NCBI GenBank assembly: GCA_027398005.1
Contig: DAHYUM010000001.1
Location: forward strand, 203 to 64,202
Direction of reading: 5' to 3'
Source: a bacterium
GTDB taxonomy: Bacteria > Bacteroidota > Ignavibacteria > Ignavibacteriales > Melioribacteraceae
Length of the DNA stretch: 64,000 nucleotides
Shown: positions 1 through 7,972 of the stretch, piece after piece
Layout: each line of letters starts with the position of its first letter
How positions within the stretch are numbered: position 1 is the first letter of the stretch
Notes under the pieces: generated by a model
The model's database searches: none
What the model was told of the DNA's origin: nothing
The model's input: the letters and a program-made list of their open reading frames with translations, nothing else
Program-made: the position numbers and the translations under genes

Positions 1-403
1 TTATTGAAGCGGAGGCGACTTTATAGGCAACCGGATTAAACTGCTGAAGAAAATTGAGCGACGGCACATCCCAGGGGCTGGCAAACCAGTCTATTCCCTT
101 TGCGCGGCAGTAATCATCAATAATTTCATATTCCTTAAACCCGAATTCAACTTTGTGCCTGTATTCAAGATAAGTAATTCTTCCCCACGGCGTATCGCGT
201 TCTATATTCCACTGTTCTTTAGGCACGCATATCTCGGGGGTTCGTTTCTGGAATTTTACAGCGTTGCATCCGGCAAATACCGCTCCGTCTATAAGTTTCT
301 TAGCCAGTTCAAGCGAGCCGTTGTGGTTAATTCCTATTTCGCCTATAATGTAAACCGGCTCGCCGTCTCCTATAAAGCTGCTGCCAACCTTCAGCTTCCT
401 CAT
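1..403 (-). CDS. NeuB-like ulosonate/N-acylneuraminate(-9-phosphate) synthase, N-terminal part only (gene runs off the left edge)
   Basis: Hand translation of the reverse strand from ATG (complement of 401-403) gives MRKLKVGSSFIGDGEPVYIIGEIGINHNGSLELAKKLIDGAVFAGCNAVKFQKR..., the typical NeuB/PseI/SpsE N-terminus. It is missing from the ORF track because the window edge truncates it. The start lies 3 nt after the upstream gene's stop. Confidence 0.8.
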   Translation of the reverse strand, partial: MRKLKVGSSFIGDGEPVYIIGEIGINHNGSLELAKKLIDGAVFAGCNAVKFQKRTPEICVPKEQWNIERDTPWGRITYLEYRHKVEFGFKEYEIIDDYCRAKGIDWFASPWDVPSLNFLQQFNPVAYKVASASI

Positions 404-406
404 CCC

Positions 407-955
407 TTATTTCTTTCCTTTTTTCTTTTTGGTTTCGGTAGTGGTTCTTGCCTCAATAATAAGTTCGCATAAATCCCTTACAGCGCCGTGGCCGCCGTTG
501 CTTTCAACTATTACATCCGCAATTTCCTTGGCAAATTTAGTGGCGTCGTTAGGGCATGCGCTTAAGCCAACTCTTTCCATAATCCCAAGGTCATTTGTAT
601 CGTCTCCTATAAAAGCAATTTCGGAAGTGGAGAGGTTTTTGCGCACAACTATATCGTCCAGAACCGCGGTCTTATCCATAACGCCTAAATGAAGTTCTGT
701 AATTTTAAGTTTCTTTGCCCTGCTCGATACAATCTTGGTATCTTCCCTTGTAATAATGCCGGTTTCAATTCCGGCAACGGAGCGGAGGCGTTCAATTCCC
801 ATTCCGTCCCGTATTGAAAATCGTTTCAGTAATTCGCCGTCGGCTGAATAATAAACACCGGTATCGGTAAGCACACCGTCAACATCGGTCAACAACAATT
901 TTATTTTTGAAGCTTTCTTTAATAAATCACTTTTGGTCAGTTTCTTTTTAGCCAT
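407..955 (-). CDS. KdsC-family HAD phosphatase (ulosonate-phosphate phosphatase type)
   Basis: 182 aa. HAD motif I is DVDGVLTD, and GDD.ND lies near the C-terminus. The overall layout matches KDO-8-P / Kdn-9-P phosphatases. Operon position is immediately before the NeuB-like gene. Confidence 0.85.
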   Translation of the reverse strand: MAKKKLTKSDLLKKASKIKLLLTDVDGVLTDTGVYYSADGELLKRFSIRDGMGIERLRSVAGIETGIITREDTKIVSSRAKKLKITELHLGVMDKTAVLDDIVVRKNLSTSEIAFIGDDTNDLGIMERVGLSACPNDATKFAKEIADVIVESNGGHGAVRDLCELIIEARTTTETKKKKGKK

Positions 956-995
956 AAATAGTTACCTCGGAATAAGATTATATTAATATTAAGAA

Positions 996-1805
996 TTACA
1001 GGCAGGTCCACCCGCCGTCAACAATTAGATTAGCCCCCGTCATATAAGCGGAGGCGTCGCTTGCAAGAAAAATAACAGCTCCCCTGTAATCCGATGGAGC
1101 CGCCATTCTCTTTAAAGCGGTTTTTGAAGAATATTTTTCGATGAAAAATTCGTCCTGGCTGTTTTCAACTCCCCCCGGGGTTAATGTATTCACCCTAACT
1201 CCATCGCTTCCCCAATAAGAAGCGAGATATTTGGTGAACATAATAACAGCCCCTTTTGTGGCTGAATATGCAGGGGGCTTGTAAAACGACTGTTTCCCAT
1301 CCTTGTTAATGTAAAGCGATTGGTCCGGAGCTACAATTCCATAAGTGGACGCAATATTTATAATGCTTCCTTTTTTCTGTCTGGCCATTTCGGCGCCTAA
1401 AATCTGGGAACAGAGAAAAACTCCCGTAAGGTTTACGTCAACCGATTTCTGCCACAGTTCAAGAGGATAGTTCTCAAATTTGGATTGTTCTAAAGCCGCT
1501 TTCGGATTTTCGAACATATCATTTATTGCCGCGTTGTTAATAAGAACATCAATATGCCCGAACTTTTCAATTATGCGTTCGCGCGCTTCCTTGATGGAAC
1601 CGGGGGAAGTTACATCGAGCTTAATTCCCATCGAACCGGTTTTTAATGTTGAAGCGAGCAGTGCGCATTTATCTTCGTCAAGGTCGGCCGCAACAACATT
1701 AGCCCCTGCATCGCTTAAAGCTTTGCAGTGTTCTTTGCCTATTAAGCCTGCCGCGCCGGTTACAATAGCGGTCTTTCCTTTTAACGAGAATAAATCCATT
1801 TGCAT
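996..1805 (-). CDS. Short-chain dehydrogenase/reductase (SDR)
   Basis: 269 aa. N-terminal TGAAGLIGK Rossmann motif, NNAA, and a Y..ATK-type catalytic YxxxK (YSATK). Confidence 0.85.
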   Translation of the reverse strand: MQMDLFSLKGKTAIVTGAAGLIGKEHCKALSDAGANVVAADLDEDKCALLASTLKTGSMGIKLDVTSPGSIKEARERIIEKFGHIDVLINNAAINDMFENPKAALEQSKFENYPLELWQKSVDVNLTGVFLCSQILGAEMARQKKGSIINIASTYGIVAPDQSLYINKDGKQSFYKPPAYSATKGAVIMFTKYLASYWGSDGVRVNTLTPGGVENSQDEFFIEKYSSKTALKRMAAPSDYRGAVIFLASDASAYMTGANLIVDGGWTCL

Positions 1806-1808
1806 CCC

Positions 1809-3143
1809 TTATTTCTTTAGCGGTTTCATATTAAAATTATCCACTTTCCTGAACACAGGCTGAACAGGAAGGCCGATAAGATACTCTTTTAATCTGTTCT
1901 CTTCCACTGCTTTTTTAAGAACCTCAAGCGATTGTTCGAGCGCCTGAAGGGTGTAATCAACATCGGTATCGGAATGTGAGAAGGACATATTAAAAAATCC
2001 CTGCCACAGAACCCCCCGTTTAATCATTTCCTGCTGAACGAGCGATTTCTGCACCAGCGGATCCCCCCCCTTGGCATCGAACTGCGCAACCGAGCGCCAG
2101 TCGTATCCGGTCATCCGTGTATAATCGAGACCCAGTTTTGAAGCTATTTCATTGTATCCGTTTTTAAGTTTACTCCCCTGCGCGGCAAGGAATTTAATTA
2201 CATCCTTCTCCCTTATTTCGGCAACGGTGGCTTTAACTGCTGCAAGCGAGAGTGCTTCCCCGCCGAATGTGGTGTAAAAGAAGATATCCTCTTCGGCCAG
2301 TTCCATAATTTTTTTCTTTCCGGTAAGGATTGAAATAGGCATTCCGTTGGCTACCGCTTTTGAATAGGTAGCAAGGTCGGGGGTAATGCCGAAATATTCC
2401 TGAGCGCCCCCCAGTGCCATCCTGAATCCTGTCCACATCTCATCGAATATAAGAACGATTCCTTTCTCATCGCACAGGTCGGCAAGTTTATGGAGAAAAT
2501 TATCTTTAGGTGCTTCGAAAACGACCGGCTCAAGAATAATTGCGGCCACGTCGTCATCTATTGAACTGCGCACCGAATCGATATCGTTGTAGTTAAACGT
2601 ATATGAAATGGCCTGCACGGCTTCGGGTATCCCGTTGTTGCGCGCTGTTACGGCTATGTACCAGTCGTGCCATCCGTGGTAGCCGCAGCAGAGGATCTTG
2701 TTTTTGCCTGTGTAGGCGCGCGCAAGGCGGATTGCCGCGCTTGTAACGTCGGCGCCTGTTTTGCTGTAGCGCACCGCGTCTGCATTGGGTATTATATCGC
2801 GCATCAGTTCGGCAACTTCAACTTCAAGCGGATGCATCATGGAAAAAGTGATTCCGTCATCGAGCTGTTTTTTAATTGCCTCGTCAACGCGCTGGTACGA
2901 GTAGCCGAGCGAAAGGGGGCCTACCCCCATAAGAAAATCGATATATTCATTTCCGTCAACATCCCAAACATGCGAGCCTTTCCCTTTTGCCAGATACTTC
3001 GGGGCTATTCCGTTTACCCATTGCCCCGGACCTTTGGCAAGGGTCTGTGTTACCGAAGGTATTAAACCAACGGCGCGGCTATAAAGCTGATTCGATTTAT
3101 CAATCACAGGAAAATCGTTTGTAAGTGAAATTTTATTAGGCAT
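1809..3143 (-). CDS. Class-III PLP aminotransferase (glutamate-1-semialdehyde aminomutase-like)
   Basis: 444 aa. Matching motifs include GSHVWDVDGNEYIDF, ILEPV, LIFDEM.TGFR and SKAVANGMP (the PLP lysine context). Confidence 0.85.
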   Translation of the reverse strand: MPNKISLTNDFPVIDKSNQLYSRAVGLIPSVTQTLAKGPGQWVNGIAPKYLAKGKGSHVWDVDGNEYIDFLMGVGPLSLGYSYQRVDEAIKKQLDDGITFSMMHPLEVEVAELMRDIIPNADAVRYSKTGADVTSAAIRLARAYTGKNKILCCGYHGWHDWYIAVTARNNGIPEAVQAISYTFNYNDIDSVRSSIDDDVAAIILEPVVFEAPKDNFLHKLADLCDEKGIVLIFDEMWTGFRMALGGAQEYFGITPDLATYSKAVANGMPISILTGKKKIMELAEEDIFFYTTFGGEALSLAAVKATVAEIREKDVIKFLAAQGSKLKNGYNEIASKLGLDYTRMTGYDWRSVAQFDAKGGDPLVQKSLVQQEMIKRGVLWQGFFNMSFSHSDTDVDYTLQALEQSLEVLKKAVEENRLKEYLIGLPVQPVFRKVDNFNMKPLKK

Positions 3144-3194
3144 TTTTCAAATTCCCATTAATAAGTAAATCCGTTCTATATTATACATTCTACT

Positions 3195-4097
3195 TTAAAT
3201 ATTATCAAACTTTTTAAGGCATTTAGCGGCAATTTGGGGCGCTGTAAAACCTTCATATTCAAGCACGTCGTTTAAAAGCCCCGGCTTGAACCATTTATTT
3301 TCAAGGGCAAAGGGAAGCACATCCGCCGTTTTCCTCTTTTTAAGAAGAGTTTCGGCTAGTATGGTATAAAGTCCGCCGGTAATAAAATGGTCTTCAATGG
3401 TAACGAGCAGCCTGCATTCATCAGCCGCTTTAATAAGGGCCTCTTCGTCTGCCGGTTTAACAGTGCGCATATTTATAAGGCGCACTGATTTCCCCGCCGC
3501 TTCAAGAATTTCCTTTGCCTTGTATGCCTGCGCGAATAGGAAACCGTGTACAATAAGCGCAATATCGGTTCCTTCGCCTAATATTTCCGCGCGCCCAATT
3601 TTAAATTCTGAATGTCCGGCAACCGGTTTAGTGTTGTTGTAGCGAATATAAAAGGGGGATGGGCTTGCGAGCACTTCGGGCAACCCTTTAAGAAGTTCAT
3701 CTTCATCGGCAGGGGAGAAGATATTTACATTCGGAATTCCCCTCATAATTGAGATATCTTCAATTGCCTGGTGGGTGGGGCCGTTGCCGTCCGATAGAAA
3801 TCCGGGCACGCCCCCAACAATTTTAACGGGCAGATTTGGTATTCCTACGTCGGTTCTAATAAATTCGAACGAGCGCATTGTAATGAATGTGGCAAGGGCG
3901 TGCACAATTGGAATTCGCCCCCTTAAGGCAAGCCCCGCGGCCATGCCTACCTGTGTCTGTTCCGTTATGCCGGTATCTATAAAATTATCTTTTATTCTGG
4001 ATGTAATATTCCTCATAGCCGCGCGGTTTTCCGAAGTCATAACCACATAGCGACTGTCTTTTGTAACAAGTTCAAGTAATAATTCTTCGTATGTCAT
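3195..4097 (-). CDS. Split transketolase, C-terminal (pyrimidine-binding) subunit
   Basis: 300 aa. Motifs GI.EQ..VGMAAGLA and GPTHQAIEDI are typical of the TK C-terminal subunit. Confidence 0.85.
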   Translation of the reverse strand: MTYEELLLELVTKDSRYVVMTSENRAAMRNITSRIKDNFIDTGITEQTQVGMAAGLALRGRIPIVHALATFITMRSFEFIRTDVGIPNLPVKIVGGVPGFLSDGNGPTHQAIEDISIMRGIPNVNIFSPADEDELLKGLPEVLASPSPFYIRYNNTKPVAGHSEFKIGRAEILGEGTDIALIVHGFLFAQAYKAKEILEAAGKSVRLINMRTVKPADEEALIKAADECRLLVTIEDHFITGGLYTILAETLLKKRKTADVLPFALENKWFKPGLLNDVLEYEGFTAPQIAAKCLKKFDNI

Positions 4098-4125
4098 GGT
4101 TTCACTTTAAAATTTAATTCAAAAA

Positions 4126-4953
4126 TTATTTTTGGTGTTCCGCGTAAAGCTCTTTTTTAAGCAGTTCAATCTCATCTGCAGAAAAATTGGCAAACCATCT
4201 GTCGGCCCTGCTTTGAATGCTCGGTATTCCTTTGCCCCGGGTTGTATCTGCAATAAGCACCGAGACTTTTCCCTTTTCGAACGGGAATGAGGATAAAGCG
4301 GCTTCAATTTCGCCGAAATTGTGCCCGTTAATGTTTTTAACTGCACAGCCGAATGATTTGAACTTTTCATCCAGAGGGGTAAGGGGTATAAGGTCTTCCG
4401 TCTCGATATTTGCCTGGAATTTATTCCTGTCGACAATTACAAGCAGGTTATCGAGCTTATATGCCGAAGCTACAAGAATAGCCTCCCAGTTCGAGCCTTC
4501 GTTCAGTTCGCCGTCGCCTACTACAACAGTTACCTTGTTCTTTCCCCCTTTAAGCCTGCAGTCAATAGCCACCCCCGAAGCGACCGAAAGGTTGTGCCCT
4601 AAAGAGCCGGAGTGGAATTCGATGCCGGGTATGTTCACATTGGGATGCCAGTAAATAAAATCGTTAGTCTTAAGGTGGTTTTTAAGCCTCTCTTTTTCAA
4701 TCCACTCGAGTTCTGCAAAGGTGGCATAGAGGGCTGGCACCGTATGCCCTTTGGAAAGGAAAAGATAATCCCTCGAAGGGTCTTTAAGTGTTTCTTTGGT
4801 AATGTTCAAAAATTCTTTGTAAAGGTAAACGCATAAGTCGGTCCACGATAGCGAAGCGCCTATAAAACAGCCTCCGTTTGTGCTCATATCCAGAATATGT
4901 GCGCGTACGTTTAGCGCCGTCTGCTCAAGTTGTTCTTTCTTTTCTTTTGTCAT
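4126..4953 (-). CDS. Split transketolase, N-terminal (TPP-binding) subunit
   Basis: 275 aa. Motifs SKGH..PALY, GSLGHNLSVASG, GDGELNEGSNWEA and DRNKFQ. There is a 4-nt ATGA overlap with the upstream cytidylyltransferase gene. Confidence 0.85.
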   Translation of the reverse strand: MTKEKKEQLEQTALNVRAHILDMSTNGGCFIGASLSWTDLCVYLYKEFLNITKETLKDPSRDYLFLSKGHTVPALYATFAELEWIEKERLKNHLKTNDFIYWHPNVNIPGIEFHSGSLGHNLSVASGVAIDCRLKGGKNKVTVVVGDGELNEGSNWEAILVASAYKLDNLLVIVDRNKFQANIETEDLIPLTPLDEKFKSFGCAVKNINGHNFGEIEAALSSFPFEKGKVSVLIADTTRGKGIPSIQSRADRWFANFSADEIELLKKELYAEHQK

Positions 4954-5756
4954 TCTGTTTTACGCTTGTTTTTATATTCGGTAATATTATTTAATTCATT
5001 TAAATGGTTATCGTACCAGTATCTGCCGGCATACTTCCTATTAATATTGTGTATATAAGGTTTTTCCTCAAGAAGGCGCAGGATATCGTAAAGCCCGAAA
5101 TCATTTTTCTTCTCGTAAAGTTCATCGTACACGCTCCGTATGAAAATATAATCCTCCTCATAATCAATAGTCCACCTGTGTGTAGAGGAGAAATCATGTT
5201 TGGTTTCCCAAACAACATTGCCAATTTTAAATCTATCGGGTCTTTCCCATATAAAGGGAGTCGTATGCTCCCTTTCAAAATTTTTAACGGCTTCATTAAA
5301 TGCCGTTTCAAGGGCTTTGAATGTGAAAATCTCAACATCATTCCCGTCGGGGTATGTAGCCGGGTGCAGGTTGCTCACAAAATCGAAATCGTTATCAATA
5401 AAATGTCGGAATACTTTATCTATAATTGTATGGTCAATAAGAGGGCAGTCGGATGGAATTTTAGCAACGGCGCCTGCGCCGTATTCAACAGCCGCCCGGT
5501 AGTGCCTTTCCAGCAGGTCCGTTGGGTGCCCCCTGTAGCAGTTGAGTCCTTCTTTGGCGCACAGGTTTTCAATAGGGTCGTCTTCGCTCCGTGTTGAAGT
5601 CGCAATTACAACGGTGCCGGCAAGTTTTGCCCTGTAAACCCTTTCAACCATTCTTAAGAGGAGGGGTTTGCCGCATACTGAAAGCATTACTTTGTTGGGC
5701 AGTCTTGAAGAGCCTGTTCTTGCCTGAATAACCGTAACAATTTTGCCTGAATCCAT
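4950..5756 (-). CDS. SpsF/NeuA-type cytidylyltransferase (CMP-sugar synthetase family)
   Basis: 268 aa. The N-terminus IQARTGSSRLPNKVM...GKPLL is the CTP_transf_3-type signature. Confidence 0.8.
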   Translation of the reverse strand: MDSGKIVTVIQARTGSSRLPNKVMLSVCGKPLLLRMVERVYRAKLAGTVVIATSTRSEDDPIENLCAKEGLNCYRGHPTDLLERHYRAAVEYGAGAVAKIPSDCPLIDHTIIDKVFRHFIDNDFDFVSNLHPATYPDGNDVEIFTFKALETAFNEAVKNFEREHTTPFIWERPDRFKIGNVVWETKHDFSSTHRWTIDYEEDYIFIRSVYDELYEKKNDFGLYDILRLLEEKPYIHNINRKYAGRYWYDNHLNELNNITEYKNKRKTE

Positions 5757-5757
5757 T

Positions 5758-6783
5758 TTATTGATGGTTTAATGCTTCTTTAAGCTTTAGTGAATAATTT
5801 AACTGTCCCGGTTCAATTTTGCCGGGGTGAGCCATAAGAGCGATGCCGGCGGCGGCAATATTTTCAGCCGAGGCCCCTCCGTTCTGAATTGGCATCAGCT
5901 CTTTTAAATTTTCTATGTTAAAATATGAATAAACCTGCTTGCCTAATGCCAGCCCTATATAAACAACCGAAGAATATTTTGTAATAAGCACATCGCAGTT
6001 AGCAATCATTTCATTCGTATTGCCCGAAGTGAAAACAAGCGAGCCGGGGGCGTACATGCTAATTTCCTTTTCGGCGCGTAGGGCGTCTTCGTTGGGATGA
6101 AGTTTAAATAATAGCTGTTTGCCGCCGGCTATTTTAAGACATTCGAGGATGAATTTTTTCCTGTTCTCGTAACGGAATGTCTCCCTCATATCGGTAGTGG
6201 CAACCATAACATATCCCTTGTGGGGGAATGAGTTATTCAGGTATGATGAGGCGTTATCGAAATTGGGTATTCCGGTTACAACTATTTTATGCGGCTTTGC
6301 CCCTTTTTTAATGAAGTGGTTTTTATATCCTTCCGAGGCTACACAGAAGAGGTCGTACAAGTCCGAAGTGCCTGTTGTAGATGTGCTTGCAATCCAGCGG
6401 GGGAGCTTTAAATATCTTACCAGATAATAAATTAAATTCTCCGGGTCAGTCATTCCCTCCTGAACCAGGATTAGTTTTTTCTTTCTTATATTCTTCGGAA
6501 TTATAAGGTCCGAGCCTGTGAATACGAGGTCGTAATCGTTCTTTGTTCCCCGATAATCCAGATTAAGGTTATTGCTTAAAATATAATTTAGTGTACTCTG
6601 TTTGAACTTTCCGCCAAGAATGCAGAAATCGAGTATTCCCCTGCGCGCCAGAAAATCGAGGAATTTATCGGCATAGTAGGGGGAGAAAAAGCAGTCGTAT
6701 TCCCTAAGGTGCTGCGAGATCTGATGCATCATAGTAGTCTGGTTCAACGATCCGCCGATAAAGAGAATTTTCTTTTTGCTCAT
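5758..6783 (-). CDS. GT-B-like protein, candidate CMP-ulosonic-acid transferase (function unproven)
   Basis: The ORF is 346 aa from a TTG at 6798. I prefer the ATG at 6783 (MSKKKILFIGG...). It has a two-lobed Rossmann-like layout, a KLHPNE (HP-type) motif and a QEG motif. It is the first gene of the operon. Confidence 0.55.
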   Translation of the reverse strand: MSKKKILFIGGSLNQTTMMHQISQHLREYDCFFSPYYADKFLDFLARRGILDFCILGGKFKQSTLNYILSNNLNLDYRGTKNDYDLVFTGSDLIIPKNIRKKKLILVQEGMTDPENLIYYLVRYLKLPRWIASTSTTGTSDLYDLFCVASEGYKNHFIKKGAKPHKIVVTGIPNFDNASSYLNNSFPHKGYVMVATTDMRETFRYENRKKFILECLKIAGGKQLLFKLHPNEDALRAEKEISMYAPGSLVFTSGNTNEMIANCDVLITKYSSVVYIGLALGKQVYSYFNIENLKELMPIQNGGASAENIAAAGIALMAHPGKIEPGQLNYSLKLKEALNHQ

Positions 6784-7135
6784 TTGCGCGTCTTTCAAAA
6801 TTGTTTACCTAAAATTAAGCAAATAAGGGGAGAGAATCAGTTAAGAAATTATTAAACAAATGGAAGCAGGGTAAAAATTACAGATACCGGGGGAACACTC
6901 CCCTTAATTATGAATTTACCTGCCGCCGCATACAAAAAAAAGTAAAAGCCATATAACGGATATTCTTTTACTGGGGCGGGTTAAAATGAGAGAATTGCTC
7001 CTGAAAAAGCTTTCAGCGCACTACTAATTAATGCCATTGACGGTGTCAAAATTACTTAAATTAATAGTTGCTTATATTATATACTTAGCCTTATGTTTGG
7101 GCTGATGCATTTTAAAAATCGATGGGGGAGCTTCT

Positions 7136-7972
7136 ATGAAGCAGAAAATACTTTTTTGGACTGTTTCAGTAATTCTAACCTTATTTTTAGCGGTATTCCA
7201 AAGAGTAACGGGGCCATCGTATCCGGTAAGCGGTAAATTCACTTTAGGAGGAGAGACTATTAAATATTCTCTTCCCCGCAGCAGCGACGGTCAGCCCCAT
7301 ACAATAGTTTCAATCAATGTAAACGATCCTTCGGCAGCGGGTAAATTAAGCTGGAAAAGACTTAAAACAGCAGACCCTTTTACCGAAGTTGAAATGAAGC
7401 AGAACGGGGGCAAGCTTGAAGCCGAACTGCCGATACAGCCGGCCGCCGGAAAACTTGAATACAAGGTTCAAATCTCAAAAGGGAATGAGGCCGTTGCCCT
7501 TCCGCAGGAAGGGGAAATGGTAATCCGTTTCCGCGATCCGGTTCCTCCAATAGTTCTTATTCCGCACGTAATCCTTATTTTCATGGCAATGCTCCTTTCC
7601 ACAAGAACGGGAATGGAATTTTTTAATAACGCGCCGCAGCTTAAGAAATATACGCTGTGGACCATAGGATTCTTATTCCTGGGCGGATTCATATTCGGGC
7701 CCATTATGCAGTATTACGCATTCGGGGAATTCTGGACCGGCGTGCCTTTCGGGTTTGACCTTACAGACAATAAGACTTTAATTGCAATGATAGCCTGGCT
7801 TATAGTATTATTCAGGCTGAATAAATCTAAAAATCCGAAAAGGCTTGTCCTTATAGGCGCTGTTGTAATGTTTCTTGTATATCTTATTCCCCACAGCGTT
7901 CTCGGCTCGGAACTGGATTACAGTAAAACCGACATGAATAAACCGGCCGCTGAAATGCCGGTGAATAAATAA
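7136..7972 (+). CDS. Membrane protein of unknown function (N-terminal anchor, extracytoplasmic beta-rich domain, about 4 C-terminal TM helices)
   Basis: 278-aa ORF with a GGGGAG RBS-like sequence just upstream. The hydrophobic segments are visible in the translation. I recognise no family. Confidence 0.7.
   Translation: MKQKILFWTVSVILTLFLAVFQRVTGPSYPVSGKFTLGGETIKYSLPRSSDGQPHTIVSINVNDPSAAGKLSWKRLKTADPFTEVEMKQNGGKLEAELPIQPAAGKLEYKVQISKGNEAVALPQEGEMVIRFRDPVPPIVLIPHVILIFMAMLLSTRTGMEFFNNAPQLKKYTLWTIGFLFLGGFIFGPIMQYYAFGEFWTGVPFGFDLTDNKTLIAMIAWLIVLFRLNKSKNPKRLVLIGAVVMFLVYLIPHSVLGSELDYSKTDMNKPAAEMPVNK

Follow-up and report, generated by a model that had tools for sequence, protein, structure and literature searches.

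The question raised by the locus described here is which product its genes make and in which order their enzymes act. The locus lies at the left end of a stretch of 64,000 nucleotides (the window) from a bacterium of the family Melioribacteraceae, class Ignavibacteria (GenBank assembly GCA_027398005.1, contig DAHYUM010000001.1, positions 203 to 64,202). Eight minus-strand open reading frames (ORFs), all co-directional, fill the first 6.8 kb of the window. They encode a NeuB-type synthase, a KdsC-type phosphatase, a short-chain dehydrogenase/reductase (SDR), a class-III aminotransferase, a transketolase (TK)-like enzyme in two subunits, a cytidylyltransferase and a protein of the glycosyltransferase-B (GT-B) fold. 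We think, with a probability of roughly 55%, that this operon represents a self-contained cassette which has spread horizontally and whose product is a cytidine monophosphate (CMP)-activated amino-ulosonic acid for an acceptor in the cell envelope. A preliminary description of the same DNA had also proposed one operon for a CMP-activated ulosonic acid formed by the NeuB-type synthase and the KdsC-type phosphatase, and this view is supported. The amino derivative that it suggested as the product appears likely as well.

Gene order and recurrence in other phyla

Domains were assigned by Pfam and NCBIfam profile searches of the window proteins. The matches agreed with all eight family assignments made earlier, and the following features were obtained.

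2..403, minus strand: 5' part (134 codons) of a NeuB-type ulosonate(-phosphate) synthase (PF03102, 7e-21)
407..955, minus strand: KdsC/YrbI-family phosphatase of the haloacid dehalogenase (HAD) type, 182 aa, presumed ulosonate-phosphate phosphatase (TIGR01670, 148.2 bits)
996..1805, minus strand: classical SDR oxidoreductase, 269 aa, PtmA/PRK09186-like (adh_short_C2, 3e-49)
1809..3143, minus strand: class-III aminotransferase, 444 aa, like glutamate-1-semialdehyde (GSA) aminomutase (Aminotran_3, 4e-50)
3195..4097, minus strand: C-terminal subunit (Pyr and C domains), 300 aa, of a remodelled TK-like enzyme dependent on thiamine diphosphate (ThDP) (Transket_pyr, 7e-24; Transketolase_C, 4e-19)
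4126..4953, minus strand: N-terminal subunit (PP domain) of the same ThDP enzyme, 275 aa (Transketolase_N, 3.5e-25)
4950..5756, minus strand: SpsF-type cytidylyltransferase, 268 aa, presumed CMP-ulosonate synthetase (CTP_transf_3, 7e-28)
5758..6783, minus strand: 341-aa protein of the GT-B fold, encoded by the first gene of the operon, presumed CMP-sugar transferase (weak Glyphos_transf, Epimerase_2 and TIGR04396 matches)
6784..7135, no strand: divergent intergenic region 5' of the operon, 352 nt, presumed promoter region, between the start of the GT-B-like gene and ORF 7136-7972

The GT-B-like ORF starts with ATG at 6783, and an alternative upstream TTG at 6798 is found in the ORF list. The gaps along 2-6783 are 3, 40, 3, 51, 28, -4 and 1 nt, and the tight packing reported earlier (-4 to 51 nt) is thus confirmed by the ORF coordinates. 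Base 203 of contig C111 is the first base of the window; the contig belongs to a metagenome-assembled genome (MAG) of 337 contigs and 87.6% completeness. The NeuB gene, which had been described as cut by the window edge, is indeed truncated, but the window alone is not the cause, since the contig itself ends 202 nt past the window edge; C111:6-497 corresponds to NeuB profile positions 1-169.

A profile of the aminotransferase was then searched for relatives. It matched 594 species-level genomes, from which 80 loci were fetched, and genes were counted by tblastn in the 50 species-level loci having at least 4.2 kb on either side of the aminotransferase gene. Two loci, L067 (=G015) and L083 (=G023), belong to unpublished genomes and appear in the tally only. 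The order found was GT-B-like gene, cytidylyltransferase, TK-N and TK-C (optional), class-III aminotransferase, SDR, phosphatase (optional), NeuB and an FA_hydroxylase-like gene (optional), and it was constant throughout the 50 loci. The counts were as follows.

SDR: 48 of 50 loci
NeuB: 48 of 50 loci
Cytidylyltransferase: 47 of 50 loci
GT-B-like gene: 46 of 50 loci
Phosphatase: 39 of 50 loci
TK halves: 37-38 of 50 loci
FA_hydroxylase-family gene directly after NeuB: 36 of 50 loci

This arrangement is far beyond chance. A search for the same syntenic set in other genomes, as had been suggested, thus showed that the order recurs in many phyla, with the four core genes in 46-48 of 50 loci. Carriers occur in no fewer than eight phyla; they belong to Ignavibacteriota, Bacteroidota (Hymenobacter, Mucilaginibacter, Chitinophagales, Saprospiraceae, Cytophagales), Chloroherpetonaceae (Chlorobiota), Chloroflexota, Acidobacteriota, Nitrospirota (Nitrospiraceae), Myxococcota, Pseudomonadota (Gammaproteobacteria), Deferrimicrobium and Oligoflexia. 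When all flanking ORFs were clustered, two further conserved items appeared, namely an SMR/EamA-like small membrane protein (17 loci), whose gene sits after the FA_hydroxylase gene, and an OlsF-like acyltransferase (5 loci). A self-contained cassette in otherwise unrelated neighbourhoods suggests horizontal spread. In addition, the class-III type aminotransferase occurred in only 14 of 101 sampled genomes of the window's GTDB phylum; thus the cassette is an accessory trait. No description of it was found in full-text literature searches.

Two other contigs extend the view to the left of the window. Contig L101, from the same species, is 99.15% identical to the window across 10,389 nt and reaches 1.4 kb further left; there it carries a NeuB of 295 aa and then a protein of 215 aa whose sequence has a lipoprotein signal (LVSC); after a gap of 177 nt comes a gene with no relation to the operon. 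The same eight genes are present on L010, a syntenic contig of 1.26 Mb (aminotransferase 88% identical), followed on the left by two small ORFs, the first with a lipoprotein signal, and a convergent gene. No nucleoside diphosphate (NDP)-sugar dehydratase, DegT aminotransferase or bona fide NeuC was found in the window operon, L101 or L010/L012, and no N-acetyltransferase in the operon or its flanks (window, L101, L010). That is, the absence of the usual dehydratase, DegT and NeuC set, which had been stated for the operon, extends to the flanks, and inspection of the left flank in L101 and L010, also suggested earlier, gave no NeuC, legionaminic acid or pseudaminic acid genes. A hidden set of such genes left of the operon is ruled out by these flanks.

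The rest of the genome was also considered. The housekeeping genes for 3-deoxy-D-manno-octulosonate (Kdo) stand together on contig C110 (KdsB, KdsA, a divergent KdsC-like gene, KdsD and LptC), and this separate group rules out that the operon is the housekeeping Kdo pathway. Likewise, a canonical transketolase of 667 aa on contig C222 rules out that the TK pair is the housekeeping enzyme. At a contig edge, C287:1-2542 (locus L015), we observed a GNAT gene, a 348-aa NeuB with a SAF domain and a 246-aa CTP_transf_3 cytidylyltransferase, followed by release factor genes; a second nonulosonic acid cluster, standard in appearance, seems to end here. Given the separate Kdo genes, the transketolase and this cluster end, the operon is a third, extra ulosonic acid route.

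Scans of the window for consensus promoters and terminators gave sites no more frequent than in shuffled sequence. A sigma-70-like match of 11/12 (TTGATA-17-TATAAT) was seen at 3144-3208, minus strand; it extends over the terminal part of the TK-C gene and the gap of 51 nt 5' of the aminotransferase gene. Bacteroidota-type promoters differ from that consensus, and the match could be an internal promoter or chance. The same interval is the junction at which the TK pair is present or absent among relatives. On the other side of the operon, ORF 7136-7972 (plus strand, 278 aa, no Pfam match) is divergent from it, and its counterparts in L010 (292 aa) and in L101 (278 aa) are found at the corresponding place. 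The right flank consists of this ORF, an OPT transporter, a transglutaminase-like protein and an Aminotran_5 gene, which are unrelated to the operon.

Enzymes of the cassette and probable order of reactions

The TIM-barrel domain of NeuB (PF03102) was matched by the window fragment with 75 bits and by the full-length L101 orthologue with 253.8 bits over profile positions 1-241. The full enzyme is short, being 295 aa in L101 and 296 aa in L010 (median 297 aa across 68 cassettes), and its C-terminal SAF (antifreeze-like) domain gave no match in the full-length cassette proteins of 295-297 aa. Its scores with the equivalog models lay below the cut-offs (TIGR03569, 254-265 bits vs 399.65; PseI, 211-218 vs 340). 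Profile placement of the NeuB-like protein, which the preliminary description had suggested, thus confirmed the NeuB domain but gave neither the SAF domain nor an equivalog assignment. The phosphatase passed the subfamily model TIGR01670 (148.2 bits vs a cut-off of 106.95) and scored below the equivalogs for KdsC (NF007019, 155.6 vs 208) and Kdn-9-phosphate phosphatase (NF058599, 150.6 vs 180). As for the cytidylyltransferase, its placement gave the CTP_transf_3 domain, but the KdsB and PseF matches were weak; the best match in the PDB was 6oew, "cytidylyltransferase", with 124 bits.

The SDR carries the motifs TGxxxGxG, NNAA and YSATK, and its models were below cut-off (best match PRK09186; NF006619, 187.6 bits; FlagModPtmA, 132 bits). 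Its role is presumed to be the oxidation of an alcohol of the sugar acid to a carbonyl. The aminotransferase matched PF00202 with 171 bits; the best match was PRK06209, "GSA aminomutase" (NF004856, 402.5 bits vs 486), and hemL TIGR00713 gave 244 vs 527, so that the cassette enzyme falls outside the HemL equivalog. D234 and K262 are invariant in the aminotransferase alignment A1, and we read them as the Asp that binds pyridoxal phosphate and the Schiff-base Lys, respectively. Its PDB relatives include the sugar C-6' aminotransferases 7lm0 and 7lld.

Many members of the aminotransferase family are fusion proteins. The commonest partner is CTP_transf_3; others are the SDR (P0122), GFO/IDH/MocA, GFO/IDH/MocA-CTP_transf_3, GNAT, GNAT-CTP_transf_3 and APH (P0206). 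These fusions indicate that oxidation, amination and CMP activation serve one substrate and that the oxidoreductase family is interchangeable.

The green sulfur bacteria also bear on the order of reactions. A short NeuB of the cassette type (58-71% identity) was present in 104 of 121 sampled genomes of the class Chlorobia, the class containing Chloroherpetonaceae. We examined five large-contig genomes of that class, all with the Fenna-Matthews-Olson (FMO) protein and therefore green sulfur bacteria. In these, a phosphatase-NeuB pair (62-67% identity) stands alone among housekeeping genes. Elsewhere, the gene of a GT-B-like orthologue (52-55% identity) precedes those of a NeuA-type CMP-sialate synthetase, an Fe-alcohol dehydrogenase (Fe-ADH) and a transaminase. 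In the PDB, this transaminase matches Shewanella KdnA best (5k8b, 269 bits), the next DegT enzyme having 164 bits. In the five genomes no class-III aminotransferase was found, apart from a HemL-level match of about 290 bits to the cassette profile. Fe-ADH and a KdnA-like transaminase thus stand in place of the SDR and the class-III aminotransferase, and for this reason amination most likely comes after condensation. By analogy with the KdnA pathway, no other argument available speaks as strongly as this non-orthologous replacement for an action of the window's SDR and aminotransferase on the free acid after its completion, probably at the terminal carbon. The earlier idea that these two enzymes form a precursor arm is accordingly not supported.

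One MAG titled Prosthecochloris vibrioformis (L051/G010) carries the full class-III, TK-bearing cassette. It belongs to a GTDB family of five genomes of 3.6-4.4 Mb, and gave no match to the serine palmitoyltransferase (Spt)-like gene at E<=1e-60. Whether it is a green sulfur bacterium, as labelled, seems doubtful, and it may be a mixed or mislabelled bin; it was left out of the green sulfur evidence, and the five FMO-positive genomes were taken instead.

The TK-like enzyme was compared by aligning both subunits with E. coli TktA and with the housekeeping enzyme on C222, and residues are given in E. coli numbering. The window pair and 50-51 of the 51 cassette enzymes retain the residues for ThDP and Mg2+ (His66, the GDG Asp155, Asn185, Glu411 and His473), and His100 is likewise present in the window TK-N subunit. 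The histidines for the donor C1-OH are replaced (His26 by Phe, His261 by Trp), the phosphate site is gone (Arg358 is missing, Ser385 is Glu, His461 is Phe, Arg520 is Asn), and Asp469 in the TK-C subunit is Asn. The enzyme on C222 retains all the tested donor and phosphate residues and Asp469. Identical replacements are common to 48-51 of the 51 cassette enzymes across all phyla, those in the TK-C subunit to 49-51 of them, and thus indicate a conserved new active site, not decay. With the donor and phosphate residues changed across the cassettes, the donor and the acceptor should differ from ketose and aldose phosphates, and, judged from the residues, C2-ketol transfer between sugar phosphates is unlikely. 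The best PDB match of TK-N was the split-chain transketolase 6yak, and we know of no described counterpart of this ThDP enzyme.

The distribution of the TK pair is patchy. About 25% of the cassettes that are complete in other respects lack it, among them those of close relatives with aminotransferases of 80-83% identity, and in such loci the cytidylyltransferase gene adjoins the aminotransferase gene directly. When TK presence was placed on a quick maximum-likelihood tree of the aminotransferase, seven changes were needed, at least five of which were forced by well-supported branches. The kept cofactor residues, the altered pocket and the patchy presence together indicate a ThDP-dependent, non-canonical and dispensable component. 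The precursor arm with a transketolase in the preliminary description is not supported, in view of the lost residues and of these TK-less cassettes. In two Bacteroidota MAGs (loci L031 and L042), the TK pair, at about 8.1-10.0 kb in each, is a different one, with an identity of 28-38% to that of the window. His26 and Ser385 are retained by two of the 51 aligned enzymes; we take these to be the L031 and L042 pairs, in which case the same slot would have received a second type of TK, closer to the canonical one.

The first gene and the acceptor

The AlphaFold model of the first protein of the operon (pLDDT 90.1) has a GT-B fold. In comparisons with VIA-align, NeuC (5zlr) and UDP-GlcNAc 2-epimerases ranked first (Z 17.7, rmsd 3.8 A, 284 residues), and PglA and TagF (Z about 15), polysialyltransferase and MGD1 (14.7) and MurG (14-15) followed. 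The CMP-sugar transferases of the GT-B fold, such as the bacterial sialyltransferase-like enzymes, have the motifs D/E-D/E-G and HP. In 36 orthologues of the window protein, QEG (108-110) and HP (229-230) are invariant. The fold and these two motifs would suit a sialyltransferase-like enzyme; however, the 2-epimerases score higher than polysialyltransferase (Z 17.7 vs 14.7). In the class-III architecture as in the green sulfur one, the gene keeps its position next to the cytidylyltransferase, and for this reason a CMP-sugar transferase is the more likely role; a role as hydrolase or epimerase, which the model would also allow, is less probable.

The preliminary description assumed a surface glycan as the destination. 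This is uncertain, and the conserved neighbours, that is, the FA_hydroxylase and the SMR-like protein, point to a membrane-lipid acceptor instead. The best NCBIfam match of the FA_hydroxylase was OlsE, far below cut-off. These two neighbours and the occurrence in Chloroflexota weakly favour a membrane lipid rather than lipopolysaccharide (LPS) or capsule; in particular, the presence in Chloroflexota argues against an LPS-only acceptor. In L071 (4083-5837) and four other Ignavibacteriaceae loci, a 584-aa OlsF-like bifunctional acyltransferase (Acyltransf_2/PlsC and Acetyltransf_5) lies directly downstream of the cassette, which hints at a link with aminolipid synthesis. We searched the window's own MAG (87.6% complete) for a counterpart of the L010 lipoprotein, and none was found.

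Co-occurrence with sphingolipid genes, examined with ceramide as a candidate acceptor, was of little help. An Spt-like gene of at least 475 bits was present in 22 of 35 cassette genomes, the remainder reaching only Kbl/BioF-level scores; a B. subtilis control also matched the Spt model, and the co-occurrence is not discriminating. In the class Chlorobia, the Spt-like gene (115/121) and the cassette-type NeuB (104/121) are both near-universal and give no independent signal. In the window's genome, an Spt-like gene on contig C314 (L016:310-3788) is flanked by a reductase of the NAD-dependent epimerase family and a 375-aa GNAT-like protein. It scored 474 bits with the serine palmitoyltransferase model for the Cytophaga-Flavobacterium-Bacteroides (CFB) group (cut-off 640), about 100 bits above the Kbl and BioF models. 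The layout resembles that of bacterial ceramide synthesis genes and would imply sphingolipids in an ignavibacterium.

Proposed pathway, alternative explanations and known systems

The pathway that we propose would run as follows. The short NeuB-type synthase would condense phosphoenolpyruvate (PEP) with an aldose phosphate, mannose 6-phosphate being the simplest guess, and the phosphatase, to judge from its family, would release the free sugar acid. On the free acid, the SDR would then oxidize a hydroxyl group to a carbonyl, the terminal CH2OH being the most likely site, and the aminotransferase would turn the carbonyl into an amine, as KdnB and KdnA do in the formation of 8-amino-Kdo (Kdo8N); these steps are suggested by the green sulfur replacement and the domain fusions. 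The cytidylyltransferase would form the CMP-sugar, and the GT-B-like protein would transfer the sugar, probably to a membrane lipid. The TK-like enzyme would be a ThDP tailoring enzyme, conserved yet dispensable, with a rebuilt substrate pocket. As to its action we can offer only a speculation, namely that it adds a two-carbon unit from a non-ketose donor, e.g., pyruvate, to the aldehyde or keto intermediate before transamination.

Several points weigh against this reading. The phosphatase gene is absent from 11 of the 50 cassettes, and no NCBIfam equivalog model was passed by any cassette enzyme. The domain fusions carry no information on reaction order, and the green sulfur Fe-ADH resembles KdnB only weakly (56 bits). 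The nearest solved folds of the first protein are UDP-GlcNAc 2-epimerases, including the hydrolysing NeuC (Z 17.7 vs about 15 for glycosyltransferases). The window species has a lipoprotein gene at the FA_hydroxylase position, and no FA_hydroxylase was found elsewhere in its MAG (87.6% complete). Finally, we infer the sugar-phosphate substrate, the aminated position and the acceptor alike.

The order given in the preliminary description was that the TK, the aminotransferase and the SDR act first on a sugar phosphate and that NeuB condenses afterwards. For example, a ketose phosphate would be transaminated at C2 and oxidized at C1 to an amino-aldose phosphate such as mannosamine 6-phosphate, which would give neuraminic acid 9-phosphate. 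This order has some attraction, because the SDR is PtmA-like and the PtmA of Campylobacter is assigned to an early step, with amino-sugar phosphates, in the synthesis of legionaminic acid. From a KdsC-type phosphatase it follows that condensation yields a phosphorylated product, the fusion P0206 joins an APH kinase to the aminotransferase, and the reaction order is fixed by none of our computed results. However, the TK-like enzyme has lost every phosphate and donor C1-OH residue of true transketolases and is missing from a quarter of the cassettes, and the aminotransferase tree shows no fewer than five independent changes. Moreover, the known relative of the green sulfur KdnA-like transaminase acts on the finished free acid, and the commonest fusions join the aminotransferase to a late enzyme, the cytidylyltransferase. 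We therefore consider the precursor-first order unlikely. A different explanation concerns the first gene, which could encode a NeuC-like hydrolysing epimerase or nucleotide-sugar hydrolase that frees an aldose for NeuB, as happens in bacterial synthesis of N-acetylneuraminic, legionaminic and pseudaminic acids; a transferase would then be lacking in the cassette itself, and the phosphatase would have a peripheral part. The structural ranking, the weak Epimerase_2 match and the cassettes lacking the phosphatase agree with it, as do motifs that by eye we take to parallel those of WecB (VQEG vs VEAG, VTGxP..D, and LHPNE vs VHLNP). On the other hand, the residue that we take by eye to correspond to the UDP-binding His of the 2-epimerases is an invariant Asp (D198), and the nucleotide motif DSGG..EE was not seen by eye in the consensus. 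The gene stands always directly beside the cytidylyltransferase, the cassette has no enzyme making a special NDP-sugar, and TagF, polysialyltransferase, MGD1 and MurG match the fold with Z 14-15 as well. We thus regard a NeuC-like role as rather improbable. Lastly, the neighbours might share no pathway, being housekeeping Kdo or pentose-phosphate genes or passengers beside a nonulosonic acid pair. The sigma-70-like match in the 51-nt gap would fit this, but such sites are no commoner than in shuffled sequence, the same order is kept among unrelated flanks in many phyla, fusion proteins join members of the cassette, and the genome has separate housekeeping Kdo and transketolase genes. There is hardly any room for this explanation.

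Within the cassette reading, a more specific but doubtful proposal can be made. The cassette and its green sulfur KdnA/Fe-ADH variant may make a "ganglioside-like" lipid head group, 9-amino-9-deoxy-Kdn that is activated with CMP and put on ceramide or another membrane lipid, and the TK version a new carbon skeleton, for which the window's ThDP enzyme would add two carbons to the aldehyde intermediate, as an extension or as a branch. 9-Amino-9-deoxy-Kdn would be a terminally aminated Kdn with the same formula as neuraminic acid. Jensen et al. reportedly described in 1991 an aminoglycosphingolipid of Chlorobium limicola whose sugar is said to be neuraminic acid, and the genes considered here could be its genetic basis.

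Sialic-acid-like sugars shape the recognition of bacterial surfaces. To our knowledge, the described bacterial routes start from nucleotide sugars (N-acetylneuraminic, legionaminic and pseudaminic acids) or stop at Kdn or Kdo. The cassette would combine the 9-phosphate route, tailoring in the style of Kdo8N by unrelated enzymes, and a transketolase-derived ThDP enzyme, and it is found in hundreds of environmental species of at least eight phyla, with a variant form in most green sulfur bacteria. If the model is true, the cassette would make an undescribed zwitterionic sugar acid, probably carried by a membrane lipid, and the transketolase fold would have a new reaction type; the model also offers a testable gene set for the orphan Chlorobium lipid of 1991. 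Cultured carriers exist in Hymenobacter, Mucilaginibacter, Melioribacter and Chlorobiaceae, and direct testing is feasible. Among them, Hymenobacter negativus BT442, Hymenobacter setariae Fur1 and Mucilaginibacter sp. PPCGB 2223 have the TK pair, whereas Melioribacter sp. OK-6-Me lacks it.

Compared with the routes to N-acetylneuraminic acid (NeuC/NeuB/NeuA), legionaminic acid and pseudaminic acid, the cassette shares the NeuB-family condensation with PEP, the CMP activation and a NeuC-like GT-B fold, but the operon and its flanks have no 4,6-dehydratase, DegT aminotransferase, N-acetyltransferase or bona fide NeuC. The two-subunit PP and Pyr+C architecture and the ThDP-Mg motif (GDG...N) are those of transketolase (EC 2.2.1.1), split-chain 6yak and DXP synthase; the donor-histidine and phosphate-site changes set the cassette enzyme apart. 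The aminoDAHP branch of 3-amino-5-hydroxybenzoic acid (AHBA)/rifamycin synthesis uses an oxidoreductase, an aminotransferase, a phosphatase, a split transketolase and a DAHP-type synthase. On paper this is the same list of enzyme types with the PEP-condensing enzyme last, but each cassette enzyme is of a different family, CMP activation and the GT-B-like protein are added, and enzymes for the aromatic ring are absent. This analogy is ruled out, because the families differ and the TK-like enzyme has no phosphate site for a substrate of the aminofructose-6-phosphate type. A phosphonate (PEP mutase) route is ruled out by the absence of a PEP mutase.

The nearest known systems are those of Kdn and Kdo8N. 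In Bacteroides thetaiotaomicron, CMP-Kdn is made by BT1714 (Kdn-9-phosphate synthase), BT1713 (Kdn-9-phosphate phosphatase) and a CMP-Kdn synthetase, and the route is also found in Prymnesium parvum; the NeuB-type 9-phosphate route with a KdsC-type phosphatase is thus established for Kdn (PMC6200933). Like this route, the cassette encodes a NeuB-family synthase, a KdsC/YrbI phosphatase and a CTP_transf_3 cytidylyltransferase together. The differences are that the synthase is short and lacks SAF, the cytidylyltransferase is SpsF-type, and the phosphatase falls below the Kdn-9-phosphate cut-off (150.6 vs 180), and that the cassette adds an oxidoreductase, a class-III aminotransferase, the TK-like enzyme, the GT-B-like protein and usually an FA_hydroxylase. 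In Shewanella oneidensis, according to the passage of PMC4402001 that cites Gattis 2013, KdnB (an Fe-dependent oxidase) and KdnA (an aminotransferase) convert free Kdo to 8-amino-Kdo before its incorporation. The proposed oxidation and transamination of a finished 3-deoxy-ulosonic acid, followed by CMP activation, would resemble this, and the green sulfur version has the KdnA-like transaminase (269 bits to 5k8b) and an Fe-ADH. In contrast, the window enzymes are a classical SDR and a class-III aminotransferase and lie outside the KdnA and KdnB families, the sugar acid would come from a NeuB-type and not a KdsA-type synthase, and the acceptor is probably not lipid A, given the Chloroflexota carriers. 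Judged by its enzyme families, we regard the cassette as a variant on the Kdn- and Kdo8N-type pathways that belongs to neither of them at the equivalog level.

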